IMG/VR virus record: IMGVR_UViG_3300032167_002503
DNA length: 20,629 nt
Strand: one strand, 5' to 3'
Origin: a virus
The position numbers were made by a program, and so were the translations under genes. Shown here piece after piece: positions 2,010 through 17,000 of the stretch; the first letter of the stretch is position 1, and the number at the start of each line of letters is the position of its first letter. The notes below the pieces were generated by a model. That model was not told the DNA's origin. It did not search any database and saw only the letters and a program-made list of their open reading frames with translations.

Positions 2010-2699
2010 TTGGCTGTAAAATGTGCGGATTGGCAATTTTTTGGGCAAAAGTGGTTAAATAAAATTGCCAATTCCGCAAGTATCTATGAGGTGATAAAGG
2101 TGTTATATGGTTATGCATGTGTTAGTTCACGAGACCAAAACTTAGACCGCCAGATCGTTGCTCTTGTTGACGCTGGGGTCGATGAAAACAATATCTTCAT
2201 AGATAAACAGTCGGGTAAGGACTTCAATCGTCCCGCCTATCAGAAAATGTTATCCACAGTTAGCCAAGGCGATATGATTCTACTTAAGTCGATCGATCGC
2301 CTTGGCCGCAACTACTCCGAAATCCTTGAGCAATGGGGCTTAATCACAAAGACCAAGGGAGTGGATATAAAGGTTCTAGATATGCCTCTACTAGATACAT
2401 CCTATTGTAAGGACATTATGGGTACCTTTATATCCGACCTGGTCTTGCAAATCTTATCCTTCCAAGCTGAACAAGAACGTACTTATATCAAGCAGCGGCA
2501 AGCGGAAGGAATAGCGGCTGCGAAACAGAAAGGCGTGAAATTCGGGCGCCCGCGCAGACCGCTTCCCGATAATTTCGATGAACTCTATGAACGCTTCCTT
2601 CGCAACGAGCCCGTCTCAAAACTAGCCAAAGAGTGCGAAGGAATGTCAGAAAGTACGCTCCGCCTACGTCTCAATGAACGATTGGCCGAAAGTGGTTAA
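2010..2699 (+). CDS. Small serine recombinase (resolvase/invertase family, ~200 aa). The most likely true start is GTG at 2100, preceded by GAGGTG; the TTG at 2010 in the ORF track is probably too far upstream.
   Basis: From 2100 the protein reads (M)LYGYACVSSRDQNLDRQI..., the classic resolvase N-terminus with the catalytic serine. The C-terminus GVKFGRPRR...STLRLRL matches the resolvase HTH domain. Confidence 0.88.
   Translation: MAVKCADWQFFGQKWLNKIANSASIYEVIKVLYGYACVSSRDQNLDRQIVALVDAGVDENNIFIDKQSGKDFNRPAYQKMLSTVSQGDMILLKSIDRLGRNYSEILEQWGLITKTKGVDIKVLDMPLLDTSYCKDIMGTFISDLVLQILSFQAEQERTYIKQRQAEGIAAAKQKGVKFGRPRRPLPDNFDELYERFLRNEPVSKLAKECEGMSESTLRLRLNERLAESG
2027..2075. promoter_or_regulatory. 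Inverted repeat GGATTGGCAATTTT (2027-2040) / AAAATTGCCAATTCC (2061-2075), with a third related half-site TTGGGCAAAAG in the 20-nt spacer. It sits immediately upstream of the serine recombinase start. It is a candidate recombinase binding site (res/operator-like).
   Basis: Seen directly. The TTGGCAA half-sites occur in inverted orientation. A TAAAAT -10-like element lies at 2017-2022. Confidence 0.4.
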
Positions 2700-2745: not shown

Positions 2746-3138
2746 ATGAATATGGAAATGATTGCTCAGATTTTCGAGCTATGTATTCTCCCCCTGCTCG
2801 GTATTTTAACCAAGTTCCTCGTGGACTTCTTAAACGCAAAGCGTGATGAGGCTCATGCCAAAACCGATAGTGTAATCACTCAGAAGTATGTAGACATGAT
2901 CCACAAAACCATTACCGATTGCGTTATTGCTACCAACCAAACCTATGTTAATAGCTTAAAGGATGCGGGCACTTTTGATGAAGCGGCTCAAAAGGAAGCC
3001 TTTAATAAAACATTAAGTGCGGTGCTGGCAATTCTCACCGATGACGCCAAGGAATATATTACCGAGGCAACTGGCGATGTAAATACATATCTCACTCAGC
3101 TAATCGAGGCTGAAGTCAACAAGAATCGCAAAGCATGA
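2746..3138 (+). CDS. Holin-like small membrane protein (LL-H-type architecture). It has one N-terminal TM helix followed by a charged helical tail.
   Basis: The translation begins MNMEMIAQIFELCILPLLGILTKFLVDFL and continues with a K/E/D-rich helical region. GGAGG lies 9 nt upstream of the ATG. The assignment rests on architecture only. Confidence 0.4.
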   Translation: MNMEMIAQIFELCILPLLGILTKFLVDFLNAKRDEAHAKTDSVITQKYVDMIHKTITDCVIATNQTYVNSLKDAGTFDEAAQKEAFNKTLSAVLAILTDDAKEYITEATGDVNTYLTQLIEAEVNKNRKA

Positions 3139-3139
3139 T

Positions 3140-3172
3140 AAGACGGGCGTATAGCCCGTCTTATTTTTTTTC
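3140..3172 (+). terminator. Rho-independent terminator: 9-bp stem AAGACGGGC / GCCCGTCTT with loop GTATA, followed by ATTTTTTTTTCG.
   Basis: Seen directly, immediately after the TGA stop of the 2746..3138 ORF. Confidence 0.8.
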
Positions 3173-3204
3173 GTTAAAAAGTGGGAAAAAAATTGGCAAA
3201 ATTG

Positions 3205-3235
3205 TTCAAACAGCTTATCTCAATTTTCATATAAT
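3205..3235 (+). promoter_or_regulatory. Possible sigma-70-type promoter: TTCAAA at 3205-3210, a 19-nt spacer, then TATAAT at 3230-3235.
   Basis: Hexamers seen in the sequence, 40 nt upstream of the strong RBS TAAGGAGG of the 3277 gene. The spacer is 2 nt longer than optimal. Confidence 0.3.
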
Positions 3236-3276
3236 AATGAAAGACCAAGAGAAAAAATTTTTAAGGAGGCTTAAAC

Positions 3277-3708
3277 ATGGCAGTTAACTATCCATACTAC
3301 CCACAGTAGCAGCCGTAGCAACAGCAAATGATGAACCCGTATGTTGCACGGATGCCATATGTGGAGCAGCCCTAGATTGGAATTAAAGGCCGCCCAGTTT
3401 CTTCAATCGAAGAAGTTAGGGCGACAAGCATTGACTTTGATGGCTCCATCTTCTTCTTCCCTGACCTTGCCAATAAGAAAATCTATACCAAGCAAATCAA
3501 CATAGATGGAACATCAACGCTAAATGTGTATGAACTCAAAACTATGCCGCTCGTTGAAAACCCTAATAGTACCATCGACTCTACTCAGTTTGTAACGCGA
3601 GAAGAGTTCGAGGCAGCATTAACCCAGATAAAAGAAAAAATTGCGCCGCAACCAGTACCAGTGGTCGCGACGCAGTCGTAGAATGGCGAGCAGTATAAAA
3701 ACTTTTAA
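3277..3708 (+). CDS. Q/P/Y-rich small protein (143 aa if TAG is read as a sense codon). It contains four in-frame TAG codons (3307, 3316, 3373, 3679) and terminates at TAA 3706-3708.
   Basis: TAAGGAGG lies 7 nt upstream of the ATG. Translation with TAG=X gives MAVNYPYYPQ X QP X QQQMMNPYVARMPYVEQP X IGIKGRPVSSIEEVRATSIDFDGSIFFFPDLANKKIYTKQINIDGTSTLNVYELKTMPLVENPNSTIDSTQFVTREEFEAALTQIKEKIAPQPVPVVATQS X NGEQYKNF*. The reading frame is continuous and protein-like across all four TAGs. Under the standard code the ORF would be only 10 aa despite the strong RBS. Confidence 0.7.
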
Positions 3709-3720
3709 GGAGAGAAGAAA

Positions 3721-3954
3721 ATGACCCCAATGGAAATAATTCAAATGATTAGGAATGGACAGAACCCTCAGCAGATTACAATGAATATTCTCGAAAGCAG
3801 ACTTGGCAGCACTCCGATGGGTGCCAATTTGCTTGCTCTAGCAAAAGACAACAATACTCCAGAAATCGAGAAAGTTGCACGTAATCTGATGTCCCAAAGA
3901 GGGTTAGACTATGACAAGGAGTTGGCTTCCTTTAAGAAGATGTTTGGTCTTTAA
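3721..3954 (+). CDS. Hypothetical small protein (77 aa).
   Basis: ORF with AAGGAGA RBS. No recognisable family. Confidence 0.5.
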   Translation: MTPMEIIQMIRNGQNPQQITMNILESRLGSTPMGANLLALAKDNNTPEIEKVARNLMSQRGLDYDKELASFKKMFGL

Positions 3955-3977
3955 TAATCTTAAAGGAGGAACACTTA

Positions 3978-4829
3978 ATGTTCAACACTAACAATGGTTA
4001 TTCTTTGTCTGATATCGCGGCTGTCACAGGTTCTGGCAACAACGGAAATGGTATGTGGGGCGGAGACGGTGCATGGTGGGTTATCATCCTGTTAATCCTG
4101 TTTGCAGGTGGTTGGAATGGTAACGGCTTCGGAGGCGGCAATGGAGCTGCGGGAACCGAAGGTACTATTACTCGTACCGCTATCCATGATGGTTTTACTA
4201 CCAATGGTATTGAGAATGGCATTCGTGGTATTCAGCAGGGTCTCTGCGACGGTTTCTATGCTATGAACACCGGTATGCTTAACGGCTTCAATAGCGTGAA
4301 CAATGCTATCTGTGATGCTGGTTATGCTACACAGCAAGGTTTTAACACCACCAATGTAGCCTTGATGCAGGCTCAGAACGCTCTTGCAACTCAGCTTGCA
4401 AATTGTTGCTGCGATACTCGCGCCGCAATCCAGCAAGCAAGCTTTGACAATGCTCAGGGTATGAACGCACTCACTCGCCAGGTTGCTGATTGTTGCTGCG
4501 AGACCGGCCGCCAGATTGAGAGAGGCTTTGCCGATGTCAACTACAATATGGCAACCAACACCGGCGCACTTCAGACCTCTCTGGCTAACAGCACTCGTGA
4601 CATTATCGACAGCCAGAATGCAGGCACCCGTGCAATCCTTGATTATCTCTGCCAGGAGAAGATTGCAGACCTGCAAAGCGAGAATCAGGCACTTCGTCTT
4701 GCCGCTTCTCAGCAAGCTCAGAACAACTATCTCATTAGCGAGCTTGCGCCTAAACTCCCGGTTCCCGCATATGCGGTACCCAATCCCTTTGTGCCCTATG
4801 GGTATACTAACTGCAACACTTGTTGCTAA
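3978..4829 (+). CDS. Gly-rich, Cys-cluster-containing protein with an N-terminal TM anchor (283 aa).
   Basis: AAGGAGG RBS. The N-terminus is a G/N-rich stretch followed by a hydrophobic segment WWVIILLILFAGGW. Three Cys clusters are present: NCCCDTRAAIQQ, DCCCETGRQIE and a C-terminal NCNTCC. There is a central Q/A/N-rich repeat region. No recognised family. Confidence 0.6.
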   Translation: MFNTNNGYSLSDIAAVTGSGNNGNGMWGGDGAWWVIILLILFAGGWNGNGFGGGNGAAGTEGTITRTAIHDGFTTNGIENGIRGIQQGLCDGFYAMNTGMLNGFNSVNNAICDAGYATQQGFNTTNVALMQAQNALATQLANCCCDTRAAIQQASFDNAQGMNALTRQVADCCCETGRQIERGFADVNYNMATNTGALQTSLANSTRDIIDSQNAGTRAILDYLCQEKIADLQSENQALRLAASQQAQNNYLISELAPKLPVPAYAVPNPFVPYGYTNCNTCC

Positions 4830-4863
4830 TTAACTGACACCATAAAAGGAGAGATTTGGTTCA

Positions 4864-5286
4864 ATGGAAATTATTGCGAACGCTTTACAAACCGTAGAAG
4901 CTAATCAAAACGTCCTTTTTACCGACACTGTAGTAGGCTGCTCCAACAGCCTACTACATCGTACTGGTAGTGGACTTGTTACTCTAAGAGGTAACGCATC
5001 AACACAGTGTCGTGCGCGTTATCGCGTGTTCTTCAGCGGAAATATCGGCCTTCCCGCAGACGGAACCGTAGAAGCTATCTCCATTGCTATTGCTATCAAT
5101 GGTGAAGCTGTTGCTTCTTCCACAATGATTTTTACCCCTGTTGCCGCAGAAGACTTGGGCAATGTAGCAAGTATGGTATTCATCGACGTACCTCGTGGCT
5201 GTTGCTTTGAGGTTTCTGTACGCAATACCTCTACTCAGGCTATTGATGTGCAGAACGCAAATCTGATTGTAGAAAGGGTGGCCTAA
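4864..5286 (+). CDS. BclA C-terminal domain-like (TNF/C1q-like beta-sandwich) protein, 140 aa. It is standalone, with no collagen-like repeat region.
   Basis: The C-terminus ...AIDVQNANLIVERVA resembles the BclA CTD ending ...IIIEKVA. The preceding segment ISIAIAINGEAVASSTMIFTPV resembles the BclA beta-strand region. GGAGAG RBS. Confidence 0.5.
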   Translation: MEIIANALQTVEANQNVLFTDTVVGCSNSLLHRTGSGLVTLRGNASTQCRARYRVFFSGNIGLPADGTVEAISIAIAINGEAVASSTMIFTPVAAEDLGNVASMVFIDVPRGCCFEVSVRNTSTQAIDVQNANLIVERVA

Positions 5287-5288
5287 GT

Positions 5289-5939
5289 ATGACAGAAAGA
5301 CTAAAAAGAATGAAAGAAACTCTAGCCTCTTGTGTCGAAGGGCAGCTTGGCAATCTGCAAAACGTCGATGCAAAAGAACTTGGCGAAGTAGTAGACATGG
5401 TGAAAGACCTTGAAGAGGCTATTTATTACTGTACTATTACAAAGTCCATGGAAGAAGCCGAACAAAAAGAAAAGCATACCGAGCATCACTATTATACGCC
5501 TATGTATTATCGTGATATGGATCGTTATGACCGTGGTAGAATGTACTACCCAATGATGGAAGAACCAATGTACTATGACGGCCAACCTCGCGACTCCCAG
5601 GGTCGTTTTATGGATGATGGACGTCGTCAGTATGGTGGCAATGGAAATGGTGGCGGCAATGGTGGTTCCACTCGCCAGTATCGAGAAATGGAAATGCCTA
5701 TTGACTGGAGAGATGAACGCGAAGGCCGCAGTCCCATGAGCCGTAAAATGTACATGGAGTCCAAGGAGATGCATAAAGATAAGGCCACTAAGCTCAAAGA
5801 CCTAGAGCACTACATGAAGGAATTGAGCGAAGACGTGGTAGAGATGATTAAAGACGCTAGCCCAGAAGAGAAGCAACTCTTGGAGAAAAAGATTAGTGCT
5901 CTTGCTACCAAGGTTGGTTCTTTGAACACAAGTGCTTAA
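5289..5939 (+). CDS. Tyr/Met/Arg-rich low-complexity protein (216 aa) with helical N- and C-terminal regions and a disordered Y-rich core.
   Basis: The core reads HHYYTPMYYRDMDRYDRGRMYYPMMEEPMYYDGQPRD...GGNGNGGGNGG. No recognised family. Confidence 0.55.
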   Translation: MTERLKRMKETLASCVEGQLGNLQNVDAKELGEVVDMVKDLEEAIYYCTITKSMEEAEQKEKHTEHHYYTPMYYRDMDRYDRGRMYYPMMEEPMYYDGQPRDSQGRFMDDGRRQYGGNGNGGGNGGSTRQYREMEMPIDWRDEREGRSPMSRKMYMESKEMHKDKATKLKDLEHYMKELSEDVVEMIKDASPEEKQLLEKKISALATKVGSLNTSA

Positions 5940-6243
5940 TATCAATGGGGAGGAGTGGAGACTGCTCTTCACTTCCTCCAATCATCCCGCGCTTATGAGA
6001 AGCGACGGCTCCTATACAATAGGCGCCTGTGACAATACGACAAAGGCTATCTATATTCGAGAAGGATTACCGCCAGCTCTCACAAAGAAAGTTCTATGCC
6101 ATGAGCTAACCCATGCTGCAATGTTTAGCTATGATGTAGAACTGTGTCTAGAACAAGAAGAATTGCTAGCTGATTTAATAGCCACATATGGTCAAGAGAT
6201 TATATCCATGACGAATGGTATATTCTCGAGACTAAGAAAATAA
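5932..6243 (+). CDS. Short ImmA/IrrE-family (M78-like) metallopeptidase-domain protein with an HExxH motif (103 aa).
   Basis: ...TKAIYIREGLPPALTKKVLCHELTHAAMFSY matches the 'I.IN..l....rRFTLAHELGH' core of COG2856/DUF955. Its start overlaps the upstream gene's end. Confidence 0.55.
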   Translation: MLNINGEEWRLLFTSSNHPALMRSDGSYTIGACDNTTKAIYIREGLPPALTKKVLCHELTHAAMFSYDVELCLEQEELLADLIATYGQEIISMTNGIFSRLRK

Positions 6244-6279
6244 GGGGAACCCAATCAAGGGTTCCCCTTTTTCTTATTG
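6242..6279. terminator. Bidirectional intrinsic terminator: 11-bp stem AAGGGGAACCC / GGGTTCCCCTT with T-tracts on both strands. It is shared by the convergent plus operon (TAA at 6241-6243) and the minus module (TAA at 6274-6276).
   Basis: Seen directly. The stop codons of both convergent genes abut or overlap the hairpin. Confidence 0.8.
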
Positions 6280-6714
6280 TTGTGCTTCTTCGTGGGTAGG
6301 CAAATCCATCACTTTGTTGTAATACTCCTCCGCCTGACCGTTTCCGCCAAGTCCATGGTATACCTTATAGAACTCGCTTAACTGCTCGTACTATTCTTGG
6401 GTGGTATATCCTTGTTTAATGTAGATTCTACACAGTTGGACTAACCGAAAGCGGTATGAAGAAATGATTAAATCTAAACGTGCCTAGTTTGCGACTTCCG
6501 TGTTTAACACGTGTTTTCGCAATTCCTCGATTTCTTCCTTTATCGGTTGAAGCTTGGTCTCAATCGCTTCATCCAAGTCTTCGCGCTTCTCGTTCTCTAA
6601 AAGAGTTTTATAGTTCTTCAACTGCTTAGAGAGATACTTACAACCTGCAAGAGCGCCCGCAGAAATTAAGCCGAAGACTATTTCCAAAAGGTGTTCGGTG
6701 ATAAAGGCTCCCAT
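6274..6714 (-). CDS. Membrane-anchored coiled-coil protein (146 aa with TAG read as sense). It has an N-terminal TM helix with BhlA/holin-like architecture. There are two in-frame TAGs (6484-6486, 6391-6393), and the gene ends at TAA.
   Basis: AAAGGAGGA RBS. The translation MGAFITEHLLEIVFGLISAGALAGCKYLSKQLKNYKTLLENEKREDLDEAIETKLQPIKEEIEELRKHVLNTEVAN X ARLDLIISSYRFRLVQLCRIYIKQGYTTQE X YEQLSEFYKVYHGLGGNGQAEEYYNKVMDLPTHEEAQQ* stays protein-like for 70 codons beyond the first TAG. The supplied track truncates it at 76 aa. Confidence 0.6.
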
Positions 6715-6790
6715 AAAAGAAAATCCTCCTTTCTTCCACTTCTCTTATTATTTCAAAGTTTAATAAGAAGGATTAACTTATTTGGCCCAA

Positions 6791-7261
6791 TTACCAAGCA
6801 CACTGATTTTTCTTGATGTAGGCGGTACCGATGCAAATTGCATCGCTTTCATCCTGTGTGGCTTTAACATTGTATGTATTGGTAACATACTACTGTGCAT
6901 TACGCTTTTGCTCTGCACGCGCCTTACCTTTTACCCCAAGAGCGGATTTCCAGGTAACAGCCATAATAGTGGAATAGGGGATTTTGAGGAAAGTGAGAAG
7001 TTCCATCAAAACACCTTGTACTTGTGCCAATACTTTGAAAGTGAGAATATTGTTTTGCTCTTGAATATCCTCAAAGACTACCTCATCGGGGAAATAAGTG
7101 TCAATTAGTTCTTCTATCTTAAGACGAAACTTCTTCAGACGAACTCCTACGATTTCATCATCAAAAGTGAATTTTCCATAGTCATGAAGCTTGCCGTCTT
7201 TAAATACGGCCCAACCTGTGGTACGCGAAGACTAGTCGAGCGCCAGTATAGTATAACTCAT
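6791..7261 (-). CDS. RuvC-like Holliday-junction resolvase (156 aa). It has two in-frame TAGs (7232-7234, 6890-6892). Its ATG overlaps the TGA of the upstream endonuclease gene (ATGA).
   Basis: MSYTILALD X SSRTTGWAVFKDGKLHDYGKFTFDDEIVGVRLKKFRLKIEELIDTYFPDEVVFEDIQEQNN...TIMAVTWKSALGVKGKARAEQKRNAQ X YVTNTY...DESDAICIGTAYI carries RuvC hallmarks: an N-terminal I-L-x-L-D-x-S-x-x-T-G-[WY]-A, an E in (V/A)-(I/F)-E-x-x-F, and a C-terminal D-x-x-D-A-x-x-I. Without TAG read-through the catalytic N-terminus would be lost. Confidence 0.75.
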
Positions 7262-7920
7262 TCTTTAAACCTCCATTTATATCCATAGGCTGTAGTTCGA
7301 GCACCTCTACAAACCGCTAGGATATTACTAGCGCCACTTAAACCTTTGCCTATTGCTTTTGAAGCCTGGCCGCCAGATGGGTATTCCGCTAAAATATCGT
7401 TGGTTGTTTTATCAATCTGGAGCACTGGTTTAGCATTACTTGCTACGGTCCCCATCCTTGCCTATCGCGAAGCTTCTACTCCTTTTCGCTAGTCTTCGGG
7501 AGTTAAAAAATGTCGATTAGGATTATTTACAATCTTATCTCTATATTCCGCATTTTGCCAACGCTTTTTCATATGTTCTGACAATCTGCGGCGCCCATCC
7601 TCGGTTAAAAAGTCAGCATTTCCCGTTGGTTTACCACCCTAATGTAGGTTATATCCAAAATCAGGATTGGTTAATTGCATTTCTGCAATAACTTCTTTTT
7701 CTTTGTTTAGTGCCTCTTCCTCATTATCAAAGATAAAAATAACCTCTTTGATTATATTATCCCAACCATACTTCTAAATGGCTTTCCATACTAAGGGGCA
7801 TTTCTCGTAGCCTTCTCCGTGGCCTCCCCATCTTTTATTAAGACTTCTGGAAGTAAAACCGCAATAATGCTTGCCGTTTGGGAAAGTAAATAAATAAATT
7901 TTGTATTGCTTTTCTTGCAT
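7258..7920 (-). CDS. Free-standing GIY-YIG homing endonuclease (220 aa) with a C-terminal homing-endonuclease-type DNA-binding module. It has four in-frame TAGs (7774-7776, 7639-7641, 7489-7491, 7462-7464).
   Basis: MQEKQYKIYLFTFPNGKHYCGFTSRSLNKRWGGHGEGYEKCPLVWKAI X KYGWDNIIKEVIFIFDNEEEALNKEKEVIAEMQLTNPDFGYNLH X GG... shows the GIY-YIG motifs (KIY...YCG, R...H, E...N). The C-terminus ...ILAEYPSGGQASKAIGKGLSGASNILAVCRGARTTAYGYKWRF is the typical homing-endonuclease 'S...I...C.G.RK.A.GY.W' DNA-binding tail. The RBS AAAGGTGG is 7 nt upstream of the ATG. Confidence 0.8.
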
Positions 7921-7925
7921 AACAA

Positions 7926-7959
7926 AACCACCTTTCATTATATAATGAAAAAGGTGGTT
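7926..7959. promoter_or_regulatory. Hairpin with a 10-bp stem AACCACCTTT / AAAGGTGGTT. Its loop is the perfect palindrome TCATTATATAATGA, which reads TATAAT on both strands. The minus-strand copy of the stem contains the endonuclease gene's Shine-Dalgarno sequence.
   Basis: Seen directly. T-rich tracts follow on both strands (GATGATTTATTTATTTTTG on plus). Confidence 0.55.
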
Positions 7960-8028
7960 GATGATTTATTTATTTTTGACCAATCTACCAAAATTTTTCT
8001 TATTGGATTGATCATGTTGACATAAAAC

Positions 8029-8087
8029 AAATCACCTGCCGTTAAAAATTCTCATATATAATATATGAAAATTCCGGCAGGTGATTT
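8029..8087. repeat. Long imperfect palindrome/cruciform with 13-bp outer arms AAATCACCTGCCG / CGGCAGGTGATTT and an inner AT-rich near-palindrome. It sits between the dUTPase stop and the endonuclease gene. It could be a minus-strand terminator (followed by TTGTTTTATG) or a regulatory site.
   Basis: Seen directly. A plus-strand TTGACA lies at 8015-8020. Confidence 0.5.
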
Positions 8088-8116
8088 AATTGAGTTTGCC
8101 CAACGGCTTAAATTTT

Positions 8117-8683
8117 TTACACCGTCTGTCCAGTAGAACCGAAGCCGCCCATTCTCTTGCCGCTGGCGGCGTCATCATCGGTTACGCTATAAGTCTTGAT
8201 AATACCCTGGCCAATCTTATCTCCACGCTTAAGCTGAACAGCAAAAGGTAGAAGATTGATAACCTGGAAGAAAATCTCTCCCTCATTATCAGGGTTATCC
8301 GCGTAGTCGCGGTCGATAATGCCAATAGCATTACCAATAATCAGCCAATGCTTGAGAGGAGTAGAGCTACGAGCGCTCAACTCGAGATACTGACCAGGTT
8401 CAAGATACACCTTCATACCAGTAGAAACAAGAGGAACCTTAGCTTTAAGTTCCTTGGTCAGCTTGGCGACATCTTCCAAAGTAAGAGGGTTGATAAATCC
8501 ATAGAAGTCAACGCCTGGAGTGTGCATTACCTTCTCGTGGATTTTATCTTTGAGGAAGTCATAAGGGGGGATAACAATATCTTCTGCCACAACAAAATCG
8601 TAACCTGCGGAATCCGAGGTACCGCGCTGTGGCATGGGTAGATCAATGTCTGCAAATCTGGAAACCTTTTCAAACTTAATCAT
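8117..8683 (-). CDS. dut: dUTP diphosphatase (trimeric dUTPase).
   Basis: Motifs SAGYDF, RSS(T), IGIIDRDY and a C-terminal KRMGGFGSTG are present. Confidence 0.9.
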   Translation of the reverse strand: MIKFEKVSRFADIDLPMPQRGTSDSAGYDFVVAEDIVIPPYDFLKDKIHEKVMHTPGVDFYGFINPLTLEDVAKLTKELKAKVPLVSTGMKVYLEPGQYLELSARSSTPLKHWLIIGNAIGIIDRDYADNPDNEGEIFFQVINLLPFAVQLKRGDKIGQGIIKTYSVTDDDAASGKRMGGFGSTGQTV

Positions 8684-8684
8684 G

Positions 8685-8927
8685 TTAGTTATCCTCCATG
8701 TTGATAATCATAACGCCCTCAGGCTCTTTCTCATTGTCGATAGTAATAGTGGCGGTAACCACCTGATACTCTTCGATGATTTCGCCTTTCTGCTTAATAT
8801 ACTTGGTAGCATACTTGAAGGCGGTCAGTTCACCAACAGAGTTCTTCTCAAGCCACTTGCGAAGACGCAGAGCATCCTCAACAGTGGCAACACGATATGT
8901 ATTAGTTGTTTTTAGATTGTAGCACAT
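8685..8927 (-). CDS. Hypothetical protein (80 aa).
   Basis: ORF tightly packed within the operon. No family recognised. Confidence 0.5.
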   Translation of the reverse strand: MCYNLKTTNTYRVATVEDALRLRKWLEKNSVGELTAFKYATKYIKQKGEIIEEYQVVTATITIDNEKEPEGVMIINMEDN

Positions 8928-8928
8928 A

Positions 8929-9192
8929 TTAAATTACCCCAATGTCCAAAGTATTCTTGTTATACAGAGTTTTTGCAGAAGTCTCGATGACTCTCTTCAT
9001 TTCGCTGTAAATCGCAAATGGAGCATGAATCTTTACAGCATCAATACCATGCTCATAGGCGCAACCAATCGCGGCTTCCGCGAGTTGCTGAATGTCTGAA
9101 CTTACCTTTACTTGCTCTTGATGCCCGTCTTTCACGACTGAGATACGAGATTCAAAAGCAAAAGGGTCATACATAATAACCACTGTGTTCAT
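8929..9192 (-). CDS. Hypothetical protein (87 aa).
   Basis: ORF whose stop overlaps the next gene. No family recognised. Confidence 0.5.
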   Translation of the reverse strand: MNTVVIMYDPFAFESRISVVKDGHQEQVKVSSDIQQLAEAAIGCAYEHGIDAVKIHAPFAIYSEMKRVIETSAKTLYNKNTLDIGVI

Positions 9193-9545
9193 AGCTCAAT
9201 AACACCCCAATCGTAGGGAAACAGCATATACATGGAACACTCTTTTGTTTCCTTATCCTGCACCCAATATTCAATGTTATGGTCGTCTCGTGGAGAGATG
9301 TCCTTCATTGTGCAGCCACGGTTCTCGAGAATATCGAGGATTTCATTCCACATCTTAGAGTAGTCTTCATCCATATCGGTAATCTTAAAGACCGTGTAAT
9401 CGCTCTTCTCTTTACATAAAAGCATGAAGTAAGAAGCATTTTTGTCAAGAGCCTTGTAGACACTTGCAGCCGCTTCTCTGAATTGTTCTTGTGTCATGTC
9501 TGACAGTTGTGCGTAGGCTTGTTTGTTAATGTCGTATAGTGTCAT
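9189..9545 (-). CDS. Hypothetical protein (118 aa).
   Basis: ORF with AAGGAGAGAG RBS. No family recognised. Confidence 0.55.
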   Translation of the reverse strand: MTLYDINKQAYAQLSDMTQEQFREAAASVYKALDKNASYFMLLCKEKSDYTVFKITDMDEDYSKMWNEILDILENRGCTMKDISPRDDHNIEYWVQDKETKECSMYMLFPYDWGVIEL

Positions 9546-9582
9546 AAATCTCTCTCCTTATGGTTATATAATAACATAACAG

Positions 9583-10125
9583 TTAAATTCTGTCAATCAG
9601 TAGTGCCCCTACTGCATTACCAGCGGCAACCACAAGTAAGAATAAGACTGACTCAAACGAAAGCGCATTGGCCATTAACACATAGCATAAATCAGCTATA
9701 CAGTGTTCGGCTCCGCACAGAATAAAACCAGCTACGCAAATAGGAACCATATAGTCTTTACCTCTGCGGTAACAAGCAACAGCACTATAAATGAAGATGC
9801 CACATATAACACCCTCAATGAAAGTAATGGGTAACGGTGCAGACAATTTGGTGGCAACCACTGAACCTGCGGAACCGATCGGAAAGACTAGGCTCCCGCA
9901 GGTTCCAATGATATTGCCAATCAGAATAACCAAGTTATCCCTTACATCTTCTTTACTCTTGATGTAGCCTACTGTGCCAGTGAATAACTTAAATTCCATA
10001 TTTAGAATTAAAAATAGTCCAATGGAGAACAGGAAGGCTCCAACAATTCCATTAAACTGTAAATAGATACAGCTTGCTATTGCTATGGATAAACCGCCGA
10101 GAATACTTTTCTCAAACAGTTTCAT
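9583..10125 (-). CDS. Compact multi-pass membrane protein with formate/nitrite transporter (FNT)-like signature motifs (180 aa).
   Basis: The ordered motifs FSIGLFLILNMEFKLFTGTV, GNIIG, GAEHCIADL and AGNAVGALL resemble the FocA blocks SLGLILCVVCGADLFTSTV, GNLVG, FEHSIAN and GNIIGG. There are five to six hydrophobic segments. It is about 100 aa shorter than canonical FNTs. The assignment comes from remembered motifs only. Confidence 0.4.
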   Translation of the reverse strand: MKLFEKSILGGLSIAIASCIYLQFNGIVGAFLFSIGLFLILNMEFKLFTGTVGYIKSKEDVRDNLVILIGNIIGTCGSLVFPIGSAGSVVATKLSAPLPITFIEGVICGIFIYSAVACYRRGKDYMVPICVAGFILCGAEHCIADLCYVLMANALSFESVLFLLVVAAGNAVGALLIDRI

Positions 10126-10594
10126 GAAGGTAAATCACCCTTTGGTTACGACTACCTCTCATGGGAAGCGTAATGTCACGCTCCTCTTCTTTATATGGGC
10201 CATCGATAATACAGTCGGCTAGCTCCAAGATTCTTTTCATGTGGTTGTCAGAGACTTTCAATAAGTCTTCGTATTGATAACCCGTCCAGATATAAACCTT
10301 GGTATTTGGCAGAGCCTTTTTAACTGATTCGATGACCAAGTGTGTCAAGAACAAATTGTCTTGACACAGTGGTTCTCCACCCATGATACACAGGTCTCTA
10401 TTGATATTATTGGCTTGTAGGCCTGCAATAATGGACTCAAGGGTTTGTGGAGTAAACTCTTTTCCTCCCTCAAAATCCCATGTCTCTTGGTTGTGACAGC
10501 CTTTGCAATGGAAAGGACAGCCTTGGGTAAAGAATGACAAGCACACACCTGGTGCTGATGAAAAATCGTTGTAAATGATACCACTATATCTCAT
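10112..10594 (-). CDS. nrdG: Anaerobic ribonucleotide reductase activating protein (radical SAM, NrdG).
   Basis: GCPFHCKGCHN is the CxxxCxxC cluster. The size and the position next to nrdD fit NrdG. Confidence 0.9.
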   Translation of the reverse strand: MRYSGIIYNDFSSAPGVCLSFFTQGCPFHCKGCHNQETWDFEGGKEFTPQTLESIIAGLQANNINRDLCIMGGEPLCQDNLFLTHLVIESVKKALPNTKVYIWTGYQYEDLLKVSDNHMKRILELADCIIDGPYKEEERDITLPMRGSRNQRVIYLHETV

Positions 10595-11241
10595 GCTTTA
10601 CTCTCCTCAATTTCTAACTCTAGGTCTTCAATATCATCCATATCATCGGTAATAATGTAATAATAAATACATGAGCAATATGGATGATACGGTGGAAGCG
10701 GTATGTTTTCATCTGCGGGATATTCTCCCTCATAGTCAGCACAACCACTCTCACAATCAGCCCCAGAGGTTTCTATTACAAGGATAGTTGCAACTGGAGC
10801 AATCTTATTTGAGATTACTCCATTGCGAATGATTAGAGTTTCATTCTCAAGCAGTCTATCCAACATGGTAGAAAGAAAGAGACTAATTTCTTTTTTGGAG
10901 TGTCCTTCTTCCACCATGAATTTTCCGGTTTGGCAATATTGCTTTATTCTTTCTTCAAGAGTTTTGCCGTCACTGCGATAAGTGAGCGATAATACATCTT
11001 CGATATCGAATTCTTTTACTTTCGAGTAAATTTTCTTCATTTCTTGAGATGTAAAACTATAAGCCTTAGTTAATGAGTCAATAAAGATTTCCAGTATTTT
11101 CTCACTACCTTCTTGCCAATCGAATATACCATCTATACATTTAAGCACAACAGACACAATTTTTTCAAGGTCTTTGTCCTTAGAGGACAAAAGCGATGAG
11201 TTCATGGCTTGTATCCTGGCTTTAAGTTCTGCCCTAGTCAT
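10591..11241 (-). CDS. Hypothetical protein between nrdD and nrdG (216 aa). The C-terminal region carries a PPYHPYCSC motif.
   Basis: ...CADYEGEYPADENIPLPPYHPYCSCIYYYI resembles the conserved PPxHPNCRC block of the phage Mu gpF / SPP1 gp7 family (PF04233). The link is weak. The C-terminal tail is acidic. Confidence 0.5.
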   Translation of the reverse strand: MTRAELKARIQAMNSSLLSSKDKDLEKIVSVVLKCIDGIFDWQEGSEKILEIFIDSLTKAYSFTSQEMKKIYSKVKEFDIEDVLSLTYRSDGKTLEERIKQYCQTGKFMVEEGHSKKEISLFLSTMLDRLLENETLIIRNGVISNKIAPVATILVIETSGADCESGCADYEGEYPADENIPLPPYHPYCSCIYYYIITDDMDDIEDLELEIEESKA

Positions 11242-13460
11242 TCTAGCCTACCTGCGTGCTTTACTCTATCATCAGCTTCAGAGATTTTTCCTTTATTAAA
11301 AGCAGTTTTATAGTTGCCAGTCAAATAGCCTGTAACTCTTCTGAGCTGCTGAATATTCTCGCTTTCACATACTGGGCAATGGTCGTTAAACTCGTCCATA
11401 AAACCACATTCAAGGCAGGTGTCATTTGGAACATTGATTGCAAAATAGGGGATGTCATGTTCCATGGCATAACGAACGAGAGTCTCTAAAGCGTCAATAT
11501 TGTGTTTTACTCCACTATCCAATTCAACATAGGTGATACAGCCAGCAGAAGAATATCCGGTGAGTTGGCACTCAATGTCAATCTTCTCGAAGGGAGACAT
11601 TTCTTTCCATACAGGTACGTGCATAGAGTTAGTAAAGTAATCTCTGTCAGACACGTTAGGAATCTCGCCATACTCCTCCTTAAACTTAGACATGGCGGTA
11701 TAGCAGAGGTTTTCTGCGGGTGTATAATACACACCGAAGTTTAACTTATACTCTTGCTTAAACTCAGCGCAGCGATCTTTGTATAGTTGCTCAATACGTT
11801 TAGCGAGTTCCATGCCGGCCGCAGTAGTATGGTCACAGCCAATCAAGATTTGCAGTGTTTCTGCCAAACCAAGCTGGCCGAGAGATAGTGTACCGTGTTG
11901 CAATGCACTACGAGTAGTTTTGCCATCATATCCTGCCATCAGACCATTTTCATACATGAACTTAGCACTTTCGGCAGGCTGTGCGCAGATATATTCAAAA
12001 CGTTCAATGAGTATATCTTTAGCTTCATGAATCTTCTGGTCTAGGAAATCCATAAAGGTTTCGACGCAAGAGTCATCTCCACTAGGATTATTCTCCCAGT
12101 ATTCTTTGGCTTGCATAGCAATAGTTGGCATGATAATGGTTACAGGGCAAATATTGCCGCGTCCATCTTTCTGTTGCTTGAGACCGTTAATATCGAAACC
12201 ATTAGCGGTTCTACAACCCATGGTGCTGAAATAAGTGCTAGGGTCATTGATATCATAACCAGCATTACCGCTCCAGTCAACGTTGGCGTAGTTTGGATAT
12301 AGACGAGTGGCAGTAGACTCTAAAGCCATGCGGAATAGGTCATAGTTGGGGTCGCCAGGTTTTTGGTTAACACCCTTCATGCACTGGAAAATTCCGCAAG
12401 GGAAGATAGAGGTCTTGCGCAGTTTGCCTAGACCCTCTTTGGATACTTCCAGCAGGGCCTTGGTTACCATGCGACCCTCTGGTAGAGTGCAAGTACCATA
12501 GTTGATAGAAGTGAATGGCAGTTGGTTACCACTACGAGATTGCAGGGTATTTAGGTTGTGGTACATACCCTCAACAGCCTGGTGGGTTTCCTTGATGGTC
12601 ATATCAAGAGCGTATTGATATGCAGCATCGAAAGTTTTATATCCTTCATCATCAATAGGCAAGCTATTGGTAATAACACCATCATACTTGGTAGTATCAA
12701 TGTTGAGGATATATTTACAACCTTCCTTCCAGTGCTTATAGAAGCTCTTGCGCACGTATGGAACCATGGTCCAGTCGAGGTGCGTAGCAGATACACCACC
12801 GAATTGTTGTAGACTTTGTAACTGGAAAATAACAGCCACAAGCTGGAAGGCAGTATTGATAGAGCCGGCTGGGCGTACATCAGTCTGACGAGTATTGAAA
12901 CCTCGTGCCAGCAGGTCATCAAAAGGAATGGATAAGCAGTTGTGCATACCAACGGCATATGCACTCAAATCGTGGATATAGATTTCATTGTTAAGATGAT
13001 TGCGGCGAGCCAGGTCTGAGACGCAGTAATCCAAGGCGTAACGCTTCATTTGAAGGTCACTACCGGCACCTACACGTCCGCCGAATGACATTTCGTCTAC
13101 ATTGGCGTTTTGGTTTTCAATGACTTGACCACTAATCTTCTCAGAGAAGGCTTTGATGAAATCATCGCTACCCTTACGGGCAACCTCTCTCTTGTATCTG
13201 TATCGAATGTATGCCTTGGCAACATCTCTACGCTCAGAACGCATGAGATAATCTTCAATCATGTCTTGAATAGTCTCTACGCTCATGGCATCAGAGTTGA
13301 TTTTTACGACATATTTAACTTCATCGGCGATGTCGTTAGCAGTATCTTCTTCATATAGTGTACCATCAACCTCGATGAAAGCCTTGTTGATAGCATTTAC
13401 GATACGGTCTCTGTCGAATGGCACAAGGACACCATTTCTCTTCTTTACTTGTAACATCAT
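11238..13460 (-). CDS. nrdD: Anaerobic ribonucleoside-triphosphate reductase (class III, NrdD), 740 aa.
   Basis: The N-terminal ATP-cone-like region, the C-terminal Zn ribbon CLECGF...CPVCES and the glycyl-radical motif RVTGYL are present. AAGGAGG RBS. Confidence 0.95.
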   Translation of the reverse strand: MMLQVKKRNGVLVPFDRDRIVNAINKAFIEVDGTLYEEDTANDIADEVKYVVKINSDAMSVETIQDMIEDYLMRSERRDVAKAYIRYRYKREVARKGSDDFIKAFSEKISGQVIENQNANVDEMSFGGRVGAGSDLQMKRYALDYCVSDLARRNHLNNEIYIHDLSAYAVGMHNCLSIPFDDLLARGFNTRQTDVRPAGSINTAFQLVAVIFQLQSLQQFGGVSATHLDWTMVPYVRKSFYKHWKEGCKYILNIDTTKYDGVITNSLPIDDEGYKTFDAAYQYALDMTIKETHQAVEGMYHNLNTLQSRSGNQLPFTSINYGTCTLPEGRMVTKALLEVSKEGLGKLRKTSIFPCGIFQCMKGVNQKPGDPNYDLFRMALESTATRLYPNYANVDWSGNAGYDINDPSTYFSTMGCRTANGFDINGLKQQKDGRGNICPVTIIMPTIAMQAKEYWENNPSGDDSCVETFMDFLDQKIHEAKDILIERFEYICAQPAESAKFMYENGLMAGYDGKTTRSALQHGTLSLGQLGLAETLQILIGCDHTTAAGMELAKRIEQLYKDRCAEFKQEYKLNFGVYYTPAENLCYTAMSKFKEEYGEIPNVSDRDYFTNSMHVPVWKEMSPFEKIDIECQLTGYSSAGCITYVELDSGVKHNIDALETLVRYAMEHDIPYFAINVPNDTCLECGFMDEFNDHCPVCESENIQQLRRVTGYLTGNYKTAFNKGKISEADDRVKHAGRLE

Positions 13461-13518
13461 ATTAAAAGTCCTCCTTGTCTATGGGATACACTATATATTG
13501 TGGTTTTGGGAAGGACGA

Positions 13519-14097
13519 TTAACTAAAATTGTCCGGCGTCTCAAAACTCATGACATGAGCCAGCACCATATCTACCGCACGCTGAATATCTCCAGGAGTC
13601 TCATTGGTAAGTTCATAGTCTGGCTGAAATCTCAGTTCAGAGAAGTCGTTTTCATCGGCGGAAAAGCGACGTATGATTTCCTGTACGTTAGGATTATCTT
13701 CTCTATTCAGCTATCTCAGTAGGCGCGTCTTATCTCCCGCCCGCACATAAAACACTGTTACGTCAATATCTTTGTTAGCCAGTAAGGAGCGCACTCCGGT
13801 TGGATTAAAGACGCCAATGTTAATGCTCTTGTTTGATAGGCAAGATTTAGCTGTTCCATAACACCAACCGTTAAAGGTTGTTGTTTCAAGCATATCACCA
13901 TTTACAGTTCGTTGAACAAACTCTTCATCAGTGAGATAGAAGTAGTTGACGCCTTCTTTCTCACCTTCCCTCATGGGGCGAGTGGTACAACTCACAATGT
14001 TATTGAAGTTATTTGGGAAACGGGTAGCTAAGGCGGTAGCGATAGTATCCTTACCGCTACCAGCCTTACCCATGATGGCAATTATCTTAGTCTTCAT
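13519..14097 (-). CDS. gmk: Guanylate kinase (192 aa), reading through one in-frame TAG at 13711-13713 to TAA at 13519-13521. The supplied 128-aa ORF is the TAG-truncated version.
   Basis: P-loop GKAGSGKDT and TTRPMREGEKEGVNYFYLTDEEF...FNGWCYGT are present. After the TAG the frame continues LNREDNPNVQEIIRRFSADENDFSELRFQPDYELTNETPGDIQRAVDMVLAHV. This matches the Gmk C-terminus (L..RL..Rg.(d/e)s.e.i..Rl..a..E......fDyvivNd..e.a...l). A 128-aa Gmk would lack that region. Confidence 0.75.
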
Positions 14098-17000
14098 TAT
14101 CCTCTGATTCTTCTCCTACATATCTTTCACTACGAAGCACCAGGGTTCCATCTTCGCCATAGTCATCAATCTTATACAACTGATGACTATTGCTGCTTGC
14201 GTACTTCTTAGCGATAAACTCGTTGCCTCGTCTAATTCCCTGTACGAGAATCTTCTGTCCTCTATTGAACCAAGAGCGCTCAAGAACCTTTCTTGTTCCA
14301 TCAGCGTTTCTCTGGAAGGTCTGCTTATCAAAAAGGGCAAAATATTCCTTACGGAATTTCACGGGTACAACACCATCAGTCGTGAGCAAAAAGACCGTAC
14401 CCTTATCTTTGTTCTTTGCGATACAAGTACCGCAGATTTTTGTGAGCTTATAGATAGGGATTGTAGAGCCTCCACGATGGAATACCTTATCAACAACTGG
14501 CTCTTCGGGAAGAGAATAGAAGTCGGCCAAGCCGTATTTCTTCATGTCCACATTCTTGAGTTCGTGGTCGTGATAATAGAAGCACATGGCTTCCATTTCC
14601 CAAGAAGAAACATTTCCCTCTGCGTACTTCTCCCAATCTTTCATAAAGATGGAAGTATTCAATGCATCAAGAACTTCTTCCTTGTTACCCTTAATCCAGT
14701 CGCGGAAAGTGTCCATGTATGACTGATAGACGTTATCCCAAGCTTTTGTAGTGACAAAGAAATCGTCGTCATACAGGTTCTCCAAACCAAGGCTATTAAG
14801 GAAGTCAATGGCTCTCACATCAAGCTTAAAACCTTCCAAAGTCTTGCATTGGTCTTTCAGATAACGATTAAACTCGTATACTCTACGAGGAGTCACAAAC
14901 TCTTCTCCTGTTGGTAATAGGTCATGTTTAATCAAGCCGGGCATATTCTGCAACGTAAGCCGCTGTTTCTTGTCACAGCTTAACCATAGATATTGCACCA
15001 TGGCCTCTTCTTGACTACAGAACTCACTGAACGCACCACCCTTAATCAAAGAAATCATTTCTTGACGCTTAGGTGAAGCTCTATGATAGAAGTCTACCAA
15101 TGACACATAAGGTCTACGTTCAATGATATTATTAACAAAGTCATCGCTGATATTAACCAATGCTTTAAGACCGAACATGATGCGATTATGCTTTTCATCT
15201 GGCTCAAAACCGAGAGCAGACTGGTTAATATCAACAAGAGAAACAGATACTCCCTCGTCACGGATGCGGTTAACAGACTGCGCCATTTTTGCATAGTCGG
15301 TTGAACCATCTTCACCACCGCTGTCTGCAATCAAACAAGCGGTGTTCCAATAGATTGTGGGAAATCTAAAAGCCAGATTCATCTCTTGCAAAGCGATAAG
15401 AGAATAGGCAAGTGTGTGCGATTTGTTGAAGCCATAACCACGGCTAGTTGCCACAAGGACATTCCAGACATAGTTGCATAGGTTCTTACTAAGACCCTTT
15501 GCTTCAACGCCTTCAAAATATTCTTTGGTAAGCTGGTTATACTCTTCTGGTTTTTTCTTCGCAATAGATTTGCGAAGACGATCGGCCCAGGTAAGGTCAA
15601 ATCCACCACACTCGGGAATTTGTACCAACTGCATGAAGCCCTCTTGGGACTCACAAATACCAGAGCTGGGTAGTAAGATGGGTTCAAGGATTTTTTGTTC
15701 TTCCTTGGTGAGTCCATACTGTTCCATCTCCTTATACCACTCATTTATGTCTTGACGGAAACGAGCAAATTTATTCAATGGCTGTTCTGCATTTTTTTCT
15801 GGTGCCATCAATCGAATGACAGAGTTTAGAGTTGCAAGGTCGTCTACGCTCAAAGGCTTAGACAAAGCGATACCTTGAATACCGCTCTGTTTCTCCATCT
15901 GGAACAAAGACAAAATCTTGTGGTCATGCACCATTTTCCACATATCGGGGTCATTGCGCTCGATATTATAGATACCAATACAGCTCTCGTAAGTATCCTT
16001 GATATTGCCTTTATCCTCTATATAACCATACTTAATCAGCAGGTCAAGACAATTATGAATCTTGTCCAGTGCTTCGACCGACAAGACGTCGTACTTAATC
16101 AAACTTACAGCTTCACAGTCATGAAGCTCATATGCCGTTACGATTGTACCATCGGGTGCAGTCATCAATGCAGTAGATTCTGTGAACGGTCTATCAACAA
16201 AGATAACACCACCTGCGTGAATACCCATACGACAGATAAGGCCCTCAATTTTCTGGGCAACCTTCCACAATTCTGGGTTGGTATCCATTGCTTGTACAAA
16301 CGGCTTTACAGGTGCCCATCCTTCACCCTCGTCACCATAATAACATTGCTTTAGAGAGCGCAACATCCCGCGGTCCGCAGGTATGAGTGAAGAAATATAC
16401 TGGGCTTCGTCAATATCAATACCGAGACCTCTTGCTGCTGTTTGAATAGCCGCCTTACTTTTCTCGGTACCGAAGGTGGCAACGTTAGCCACTCTATCTT
16501 GACCATAAACCTGTCTCAATCTCTCAAGAACAACACCACGGCGTCCGCCCTCAATGTCGAAGTCTACATCCAAAACAGATACACGACTTGGGTTCAAGAA
16601 ACGCCAAGCAAAAGTAGGAGTTGTTTCTCTGAGAGGGTTAATCTGTGTGATGCCCAAGATATATAGTAGAATAAAACCAACGCCAGAACCACGACCAGGT
16701 CCAACAAGAGAACCAGCATCCCAACAGGTATCAATAATGTTTTGCAGATTGAGATAATAAGAAGACCAGTGGGTCTTATTAACCTCAGAAGATTCCCAAG
16801 TCATATCAAGACATTCGTTGATTGCATCGTAGGTCGCTTGATTTTGTAGGGTCGTATCCCATTCAAGTCTTTCTACTATTGCTTGCGCGAGGCGCACATC
16901 ACCGTGATAATCAGACTCCACAAATCTCTTCAATTCGGGAATCTTATCATACCAAAGAGAGAGCTTACCCTTGGGCGCCGCAAACTTCCAAGGAAGTTCC

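Follow-up and report, generated by a model that had tools for sequence, protein, structure and literature searches.

In this work we analysed a 20,629-nt stretch of viral DNA, IMG/VR virus record IMGVR_UViG_3300032167_002503 (hereafter the window, by which the whole stretch is meant), focusing on five genes in which the codon TAG occurs in frame. From left to right, the window carries genes for a tail-fibre-like protein, a small serine recombinase, a holin, a glutamine- and proline-rich (Q/P-rich) protein, several products of unknown function and a membrane protein, followed by those for a RuvC-like Holliday junction resolvase, a GIY-YIG homing endonuclease, a dUTPase-like protein, NrdG and NrdD, guanylate kinase (Gmk), the DnaE polymerase, a helicase and a tail-lysozyme-like protein (Table 1). 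By the sequence evidence presented below, TAG is confirmed as a sense codon in the five genes, never serving as a terminator.

Table 1. Features of the window, with in-frame TAG codons where these were scored (minus-strand TAG coordinates give the high end of the codon; DGR, diversity-generating retroelement; ORF, open reading frame)
Feature	Position	Strand	In-frame TAG	Remarks
Tail-fibre-like gene (Big_3, DUF6273)	3..1673	-	none	5' 1671 nt of a 589-aa gene; 3' end holds the DGR variable repeat
Small serine recombinase gene (Resolvase domain)	2010..2699			229 aa; divergent, beside the tail-fibre gene
Holin gene (phrog_13712)	2746..3138	+	none	late-function gene
Q/P-rich protein gene (PHROG 21718)	3277..3708	+	4: 3307, 3316, 3373, 3679	143 aa; unknown function
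Membrane/coiled-coil protein gene (PHROG 4105/4257)	6274..6714	-	2: 6486-6484, 6393-6391	146 aa
RuvC-like Holliday junction resolvase gene	6791..7261	-	2: 7234-7232 (codon 10), 6892-6890 (codon 124)	156 aa
GIY-YIG insertion	7223..8015			lacking in other strains
GIY-YIG homing endonuclease gene	7258..7920	-	4: 7776, 7641, 7491, 7464	220 aa; strain-specific insertion
Second strain-specific insertion	10599..11247			216-aa ORF between nrdD and nrdG; no family match
NrdD (anaerobic ribonucleotide reductase) gene	11238..13460	-	none in this species	30 CAA/CAG codons
Guanylate kinase (Gmk) gene	13519..14097	-	1: 13713-13711 (codon 129)	192 aa; between dnaE and nrdD
DnaE (DNA polymerase III alpha) gene	14087..17902	-	none	52 CAA/CAG codons
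Helicase gene (AAA_30/UvrD_C_2)	17964..19136	-	none	10 CAA/CAG codons

In-frame TAG was marked in every translated candidate gene of the window and stops were tabulated by frame, which yielded 13 in-frame TAG codons across the five genes and no internal TAA or TGA in any of them. Off frame, TAA and TGA together make up 5.8% of codons in the window, so that a run of 143-220 codons free of both would arise by chance with P = 2e-4 to 2e-6 per gene. Gene ends, scored on 27 complete ORFs (a list with one doubtful member, a 50-codon ORF at 3135-3287), comprised 17 TAA, 10 TGA and no TAG, which has P = 0.002 if TAG is expected at 20% of stops; TAG terminators were likewise absent among the 21 and 28 called genes of two same-species regions outside the window. 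The clustering is non-random, with TAG and CAA/CAG codons at 13:39 in the five recoded genes vs 0:218 in the others (Fisher p = 1.3e-10). Domain matches run across the TAGs: Pfam RuvC spans residues 5-144 and phrog_159 residues 2-154 of the resolvase, Guanylate_kin covers residues 3-176 of Gmk, and the endonuclease has a Pfam GIY-YIG match together with the homing-endonuclease family phrog_314 over residues 1-220, while phrog_4257 and phrog_21718 match residues 42-143 of the membrane protein and 6-133 of the Q/P-rich protein, respectively. The bases following the 13 TAGs are C, C, A, A, G, T, T, T, A, G, C, G and C, and a search of the 13 contexts for a common downstream motif found none shared.

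These results bear on an earlier sequence-only reading of the window, which had proposed that 13 ambers interrupt five genes in frame, that protein-like sequence continues beyond them, that no gene end uses TAG, and that standard-code gene callers would truncate or miss the five genes. The first three proposals agree with the counts and matches given above, and the last with the public annotations: code-11 calls reduce Gmk to 128 aa and either break up or miss the other four genes, whereas public calls on long contigs, in which the TAGs are also present, run through them (Gmk 192 aa, RuvC 155, membrane protein 144, Q/P-rich protein 143). The comparison of coding density suggested in the same reading also favoured TAG as sense, with ORF coverage of the window, a crude measure of coding density, rising from 0.763 under table 11 to 0.811.

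The TAG codons recur outside this record, which appears to correspond to 190-20818 of the 73.7-kb JGI contig Ga0318466_10008443. Look-ups of exact proteins recovered numerous independent assemblies (ENA, JGI and Logan) with 96-100% identity to the window, and identical TAG codons were found in 19-21 same-species loci for the Q/P-rich gene, in 24 for Gmk and in 12 for the membrane protein, while those of RuvC and GIY-YIG recur in 3 loci from 2 independent assemblies. The sequence-only reading had named absence of the ambers from independent reads as a sign of artefact; they repeat in independent assemblies, from 2 to more than 20 per gene. That the TAGs are sequencing or assembly errors, a concern for a window of metagenomic origin, is refuted by this recurrence of identical codons, and the probability we leave to it is practically nil.

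The identity of the inserted residue was approached at two evolutionary distances. Within the species, RuvC codons 10 and 124, both TAG in the window, are CAA and CAG, respectively, in 9 close strains; codon 14 of the Q/P-rich gene is TAG in the window and CAG in strain L039, and its codon 117 is a glutamine (Gln, Q) codon in the window and TAG in L039. Thus, all four polymorphic sites exchange TAG with CAA/CAG, and none exchanges it with TCN or TTG. Across the family, window-species proteins were aligned to orthologues in IMG/VR relatives, and the window residue opposite a relative's TAG was Q in 338 of 686 positions (49%, against a background of 3.9%; 12.8-fold), in counts that include related sequences. 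Lysine was next, at 2.2-fold, and S (1.3%, 0.2-fold), L (6.3%, 0.8-fold) and Y (0.3%, 0.1-fold) were depleted. In the reverse direction, about 212 residues of relatives faced a TAG of the window, and 102 of them were Q; the position of Gmk codon 129 is Q, S or A in relatives. On alignment evidence, the reading of UAG as glutamine (genetic code 15) in a subset of genes is therefore supported; the sequence-only reading had suggested glutamine from the Q-rich context of several TAGs and proposed the alignment of homologues as a check, and both the residues opposite TAG and the four polymorphisms point the same way.

The use of TAG is gene-specific, as the sequence-only reading had noted from the absence of TAG in dnaE, nrdD and the helicase gene, and the partition into TAG-rich and TAG-poor gene sets is, in the alignments, conserved family-wide. 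RuvC is the most TAG-rich gene of the family, with TAG making up 0.55 of its Gln-type codons, followed by the invertase (0.44), the membrane protein, p103 and GIY-YIG (about 0.30), ThyX and p77 (about 0.27) and RecJ (0.19). At the other end stand the holin (0.017), the dUTPase-like protein (0.015), NrdD (0.012), DnaE (0.003), and YorF and the lysozyme-like protein (0). In eight relatives, heavily recoded genomes included, dnaE holds a single TAG vs 329 CAA/CAG codons. The value for nrdD, 1.2% of Gln-type codons, comes from 10 aligned orthologues; in the ORF listing of the heavily recoded relative L011, its nrdD copy has 14 TAG. Beyond the window, the same species carries TAG in the genes for ThyX (1), AAA_24 (1), RecJ (at least 6) and a second GIY-YIG protein, as well as in those for the DGR reverse transcriptase and Avd (1 each), and no TAG in those for DnaB, a primase-like protein, YorF, YorH and the lysozyme-like protein. 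The endolysin gene has 9 TAG in the closest IMG/VR relatives, whose DnaB is 82% identical, and in another subfamily the gene for the tape measure protein (2902 aa) has 26 and those for tail and baseplate proteins 12-17. The clade mixes standard-code members (L007, L012 and L014) with lightly and heavily recoded ones; in heavily recoded relatives, ORF coverage rises from 0.57 to 0.87 and from 0.55 to 0.81 under a table with TAG as sense.

A candidate decoder was located through a metagenome scan with the vault-like protein of the closest relatives, which carry a cluster of tRNA-Ser(UGA), tRNA(CUA), tRNA-Leu(CAA) and tRNA-Cys. A DUF2828 protein beside that cluster has an orthologue, P0079, whose longest contig (148,937 bp) provided locus L380; this locus and L040, which is 95-98% identical to the window, lie on the same contig, XIEF21-1_SAMN15830104 scaffold_177 (148,937 bp). 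There, a 91-nt tRNA(CUA) occupies L380 8406-8496, at about 102.2 kb of the contig and about 43 kb from the window-equivalent region, directly preceded by a tRNA-Ser(UGA) (L380 8313-8405) with a spacer of 0 nt after the encoded CCA. Six assemblies share this tRNA(CUA) sequence without a difference, and it scores 53 bits against the Rfam tRNA model (gathering score 29). The variable region contains a 17-nt insertion and the 1:72 pair is non-standard (a U.U mismatch); the anticodon stem is an ordinary one of 5 bp, the D-loop is normal and the T-loop reads GTTCGAA. In an alignment with five further tRNA(CUA) genes from phages, 12 of 20 stem pairs carry compensatory changes. The closest relatives carry a 75-nt version without the insertion. 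The molecule combines C34-U35, the discriminator G73 and an unpaired 1:72 position. C34-U35 and G73 are Gln identity features by the rules of glutaminyl-tRNA synthetase (GlnRS). An open first base pair is also a Gln identity feature (PMC2811023). Judged from sequence, the tRNA(CUA) therefore appears Gln-like by both GlnRS and GatCAB identity rules. Further, 26 of the 28 genes around it lack TAG, and the region should therefore be expressible by host machinery under the standard code.

ARAGORN and Rfam scans of the window found no tRNA, nor did Rfam on five loci, and ARAGORN found none in about 5 Mb of family DNA (dnaE-centred, endolysin-centred, tail-fibre, baseplate, tape-measure and tail-tube loci); relaxed ARAGORN settings, its intron mode and an anticodon-arm/T-arm scan returned nothing, or false positives inside genes. 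The sequence-only reading had also proposed a search for helper genes, and of these the CUA tRNA is present in the same species, while release factor 2 (RF2), an antagonist of release factor 1 (RF1) and GlnRS went unseen among the Pfam families of the approximately 38% of the genome inspected.

The TAG-poor region near the tRNAs also encodes YqeY, an RNA-ligase-like protein, metallophosphoesterases, a nicotinamidase and a phosphoribosyl pyrophosphate (PRPP) synthetase (L384 21072-21506; L134 120-566, 4122-4985 and 5052-5582; L380 18458-19732), to which the corresponding region of relatives adds Thg1 (tRNA-His guanylyltransferase family), an AAA_33 kinase and NadV. By its gene content, this auxiliary region looks like a module for tRNA repair and salvage of nicotinamide adenine dinucleotide (NAD). 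A free-standing YqeY corresponds to the GatB-tail, tRNA-Gln-binding domain; a role for it in charging the suppressor tRNA is speculation. Adjoining the tRNA cluster (L380 10001-14284) are two TAG-free genes that are conserved in the family, one encoding the DUF2828/DUF7788 protein and the other a protein of 800 aa with a major-vault-protein shoulder domain. In five IMG/VR contigs that share NadV (L364-L368), arrays of about 24 tRNAs lie upstream of this gene, and only the NAD-salvage genes are common with the family of the window phage; a tRNA(CUA) sits between tRNA-Glu(CUC) and tRNA-Cys in 2 of the 5 and is absent at that spot in 3. Their tRNA spacers carry a repeated hairpin-like element, and the literature reports theta (hepatitis delta virus-like) ribozymes beside phage tRNAs.

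Three other explanations of the TAG codons were weighed against these data. Were the TAGs real stops, the five genes would be pseudogenes or truncated genes of a decaying or defective element; the code-11 reading does shorten genes, as with Gmk, and homing endonucleases are often degenerate. However, TAG is the sole interruption, with neither TAA, TGA nor frameshifts in these genes; beyond each TAG the homology goes on, up to 24 assemblies have the TAGs fixed, no gene terminates in TAG, and orthologues in dozens of relatives have TAGs elsewhere, aligned with Q, all of which makes this reading extremely improbable. A different possibility is decoding by the host, or context-programmed read-through without a dedicated tRNA. 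That neither the window nor most of the family DNA scanned (several Mb) yielded a tRNA would fit, and a suppressor tRNA is detectable in only about 40% of TAG-recoded phages (bioRxiv 10.1101/2021.08.26.457843). Nevertheless, a tRNA(CUA) is encoded by the species, by its closest relatives and by the recoded gut phage phAss-1 (OQ749652). Constitutive decoding by the host is also unlikely because the avoidance of TAG by core replication genes would then be pointless, and we know of no bacterium that uses code 15. Programmed context-dependent read-through was rejected, given that the base after TAG is unconstrained, the 13 sites share no motif, and genes hold up to 4 TAGs here and 26 in relatives. 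We therefore regard dependence on the host as very unlikely.

That TAG is sense and specifies a residue other than Gln (serine, leucine as in code 16, or pyrrolysine) finds some footing in the tRNA itself, which is 91 nt long, has the 17-nt variable-region insertion and G73, and directly follows tRNA-Ser(UGA); SerRS and LeuRS, moreover, ignore the anticodon. ARAGORN labels it 'Pyl', a label based on the anticodon only. Against this stand the aligned residues, with Q at 49% and S, L and Y each a small fraction of that, the four within-species polymorphisms, and the 91-nt tRNA itself, which aligns in D-arm, acceptor stem and anticodon arm with the 75-nt suppressors of the closest relatives and phAss-1. 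Pyrrolysine decoding was rejected in view of the canonical D-arm and T-loop and the match to the general tRNA model; pylT differs from this tRNA in anticodon stem, D-loop and T-loop. Neither pylS nor pylBCD appeared among the Pfam families listed for the inspected same-species regions. The phAss-1 suppressor is assigned to Gln by its authors (PMC10607447). On balance, a residue other than Gln is unlikely.

Integrating these findings, the window very probably belongs to a tailed phage of about 149 kb in which UAG means Gln and is decoded through the phage's own suppressor tRNA, which would gate a set of genes. Host machinery would first express the TAG-free part of the genome, including replisome genes and the tRNA and auxiliary region; the suppressor tRNA would then accumulate, receive Gln from a host enzyme and outcompete RF1, and full-length products of TAG-containing genes would become possible only after its build-up. 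The genes gated here would be those for RuvC, the homing endonucleases, RecJ, the membrane protein, the Q/P-rich protein, Gmk, ThyX and the DGR reverse transcriptase with Avd, and in relatives additionally those for the invertase, the endolysin and tail proteins. The recoded codon may in this way act as a translational gate for late, dosage-sensitive or selfish genes, and from this distribution we infer control over the timing of late and selfish functions; an ordered-expression model has been proposed for recoded gut phages (bioRxiv 10.1101/2021.08.26.457843).

Several observations weigh against this proposal. The suppressor tRNA is seen on same-species contigs and not in the window stretch itself; judging by tRNA structure alone, its 17-nt insertion and the abutting tRNA-Ser(UGA) make charging with Ser possible; and no RF2, RF1 antagonist or GlnRS is found among the Pfam families listed for called genes in about 56 kb (38%) of the species genome. 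Also, the family-wide Q counts overstate independence because related sequences are included, with a direction that is nonetheless unambiguous. The timing model in particular fits imperfectly, the holin and tail-fibre genes being TAG-free and Gmk, ThyX, RecJ and AAA_24 carrying TAG. A further proposal, that the lineage is caught amid recoding and carries an unusual code-switch module with YqeY as a possible dedicated Gln-charging cofactor, is tentative and in our view rather doubtful. It draws on strains of 96-97% nucleotide identity that differ by TAG and CAA/CAG; besides, one RuvC TAG was brought in with the homing-endonuclease insertion, and mobile elements may therefore spread recoded alleles.

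Among described phages, phAss-1 (proposed Phassvirus, filed at NCBI under 'Caudoviricetes code 15 clade') is close to the window phage in several respects. Both are large genomes from gut metagenomes, of about 136-149 kb, with a predicted Clostridia host, and both encode a DnaE-type polymerase, NrdD/NrdG, ThyX, RecJ, RuvC, NadV and PRPP synthetase; the tape measure protein has about 3150 aa in phAss-1 and 2902 aa in a relative of the window phage. According to its description, TAG is read as Gln in 28% of the phAss-1 ORFs (PMC10607447). Its 75-nt suppressor tRNA aligns closely with that of the window phage's closest relatives, and the deposited genome also has a 91-nt tRNA(CUA) with a long variable arm. 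The two phages are nevertheless distant (DnaE 34-37%, NrdD 39% and RecJ 34% identity; 23-61% across proteins). phAss-1 has 36 tRNAs with 3 suppressors, which adjoin nrdD, whereas the inspected part of the window species has 9-10 with one suppressor, about 43 kb from nrdD. Phassvirus members share 80-86% nucleotide identity (PMC10607447); membership of the window phage was rejected, as it gave no megablast match in the phage collection and its proteins are only 23-61% identical, which would place the two in the same broad group at most.

Lak, crAss-like, Agate, Garnet and further clades of Borges et al. likewise read TAG as Gln and mix standard and recoded genes within a genome; there, as in the window family, close relatives differ in code and replication genes are recoded to a variable degree. 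The strongest recoding in those clades affects, among other genes, those for a homing endonuclease and a transmembrane lysis-cassette protein, and Agate phages are reported at about 127 kb (bioRxiv 10.1101/2021.08.26.457843). By comparison, the window has TAG in 5 of 27 genes (19%) against clade means of 26-71% (bioRxiv 10.1101/2021.08.26.457843), and its holin gene is TAG-free. For crAss-like phages, decoding of TAG as Gln was demonstrated by metaproteomics, the only case known to us with peptide proof (PMC9523058). They constitute an unrelated lineage (Crassvirales, Bacteroidota hosts, podovirus-like) in which homology to the window phage was seen for generic enzymes only. At the level of mechanism, the best known parallel is E. 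coli supE, a chromosomal point mutant tRNA-Gln with a CUA anticodon that gives partial suppression. In both cases a CUA tRNA with Gln identity (U35, G73, weak 1:72 pair) would compete with RF1, and from this analogy the system most likely works like supE amber suppression; unlike supE, the tRNA of the window species is phage-encoded, conserved with compensatory changes and extended by the 17-nt insertion.

Code 15 recoding is already well documented in gut phages, and the window is a clear new example that leaves the current understanding of phage recoding unchanged. The remaining novelty lies in the within-species TAG/CAG polymorphism, the arrival of a TAG by way of a homing-endonuclease insertion, and the unusual suppressor tRNA alongside YqeY, which, if its suggested role is true, would be an undescribed phage-encoded aminoacylation accessory for an atypical tRNA. 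Since callers using table 11 truncate or drop one fifth of the window genes, and most structural and lysis genes in relatives, the genomes of this family, which are abundant in gut and rumen, should be annotated with table 15. The family also offers a natural series for the transition from stop to sense, from standard through light to heavy recoding with polymorphism within a species, and is useful for asking which genes phages gate: the junction resolvase, the invertase, homing endonucleases and the DGR reverse transcriptase. Lysis and tail genes, which the literature stresses, belong to this set as well.

With respect to the phage itself, megablast of the window against the phage collection gave no match among isolate phages. 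The best isolate match to its DnaE is SPbeta YorL (38% identity over 99% of the protein), and proteins with YorF and YorH domains are present in the same species. Same-species contigs measure 146.5-148.9 kb, two of them exactly 148,937 bp, which indicates a genome of about 149 kb; SPbeta, which we take to be a standard-code relative, is of comparable size and shares the YorF/YorH domain proteins, yet the relationship is only remote, with DnaE below 40% identity. One relative's contig was binned in an uncultured Clostridia metagenome-assembled genome, and the window phage is probably a tailed, distantly SPbeta-like phage of a Clostridia host. A query with ThyX was rejected as a route to relatives, as it returned mostly unrelated phages of about 30-45 kb. 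MT835477.1, a distant relative by one protein, was likewise set aside; it uses the standard code and has only tRNA-Gln(UUG) and tRNA-Ile(UAU).

Strain comparison revealed several mobile or variable segments. The GIY-YIG insertion is missing from other strains (96-97% identical), and it also swaps the first 13 RuvC codons, TAG codon 10 included. Orthologues in relatives of the 216-aa ORF in the second insertion are TAG-rich, at 28% of Gln-type codons. At the left end lies the target of a DGR, the C-terminus encoded by the tail-fibre gene (window <1-1673, minus strand). Its template and variable repeats form a 110-nt pair of 84% identity (L001 1546-1655 and 2301-2410), the variable repeat corresponding to window 1-27 and continuing to about -82 beyond the window, and wherever the two copies differ, at 18 sites, the coding strand of the template has A. 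Immediately beyond the left edge of the window are ORFs for a 387-aa reverse transcriptase (RVT_1, E = 2.6e-8) and an Avd-like protein. The variable repeat is where the majority of assemblies end: in a look-up from the holin gene toward the structural module, all contigs ended there, and a tail-tube homologue search for the structural module gave no match tied to the species. Beside the tail-fibre gene, exactly at the junction with the recombinase gene (about 2018-2024), an additional 2.2 kb (DUF4376 and a 407-aa gene) is present in other strains, whose recombinase ORF is shorter (150-199 aa). This configuration suggests that the tail-fibre locus undergoes site-specific rearrangement. The small serine recombinase gene has 7 TAG in one subfamily of relatives. 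Mobile elements also interrupt replication genes, with an intein and NUMOD/HNH-type ORFs in nrdD (L047 13072-17200), and split dnaE matches occur in relatives L011, L015 and L016 around 10001-15200, dnaE still being TAG-free. Finally, the start of dnaE differs by gene caller, with 1271 aa from a GTG in the code-11 call and 1203 aa in the TAG-spanning calls of the long contigs.

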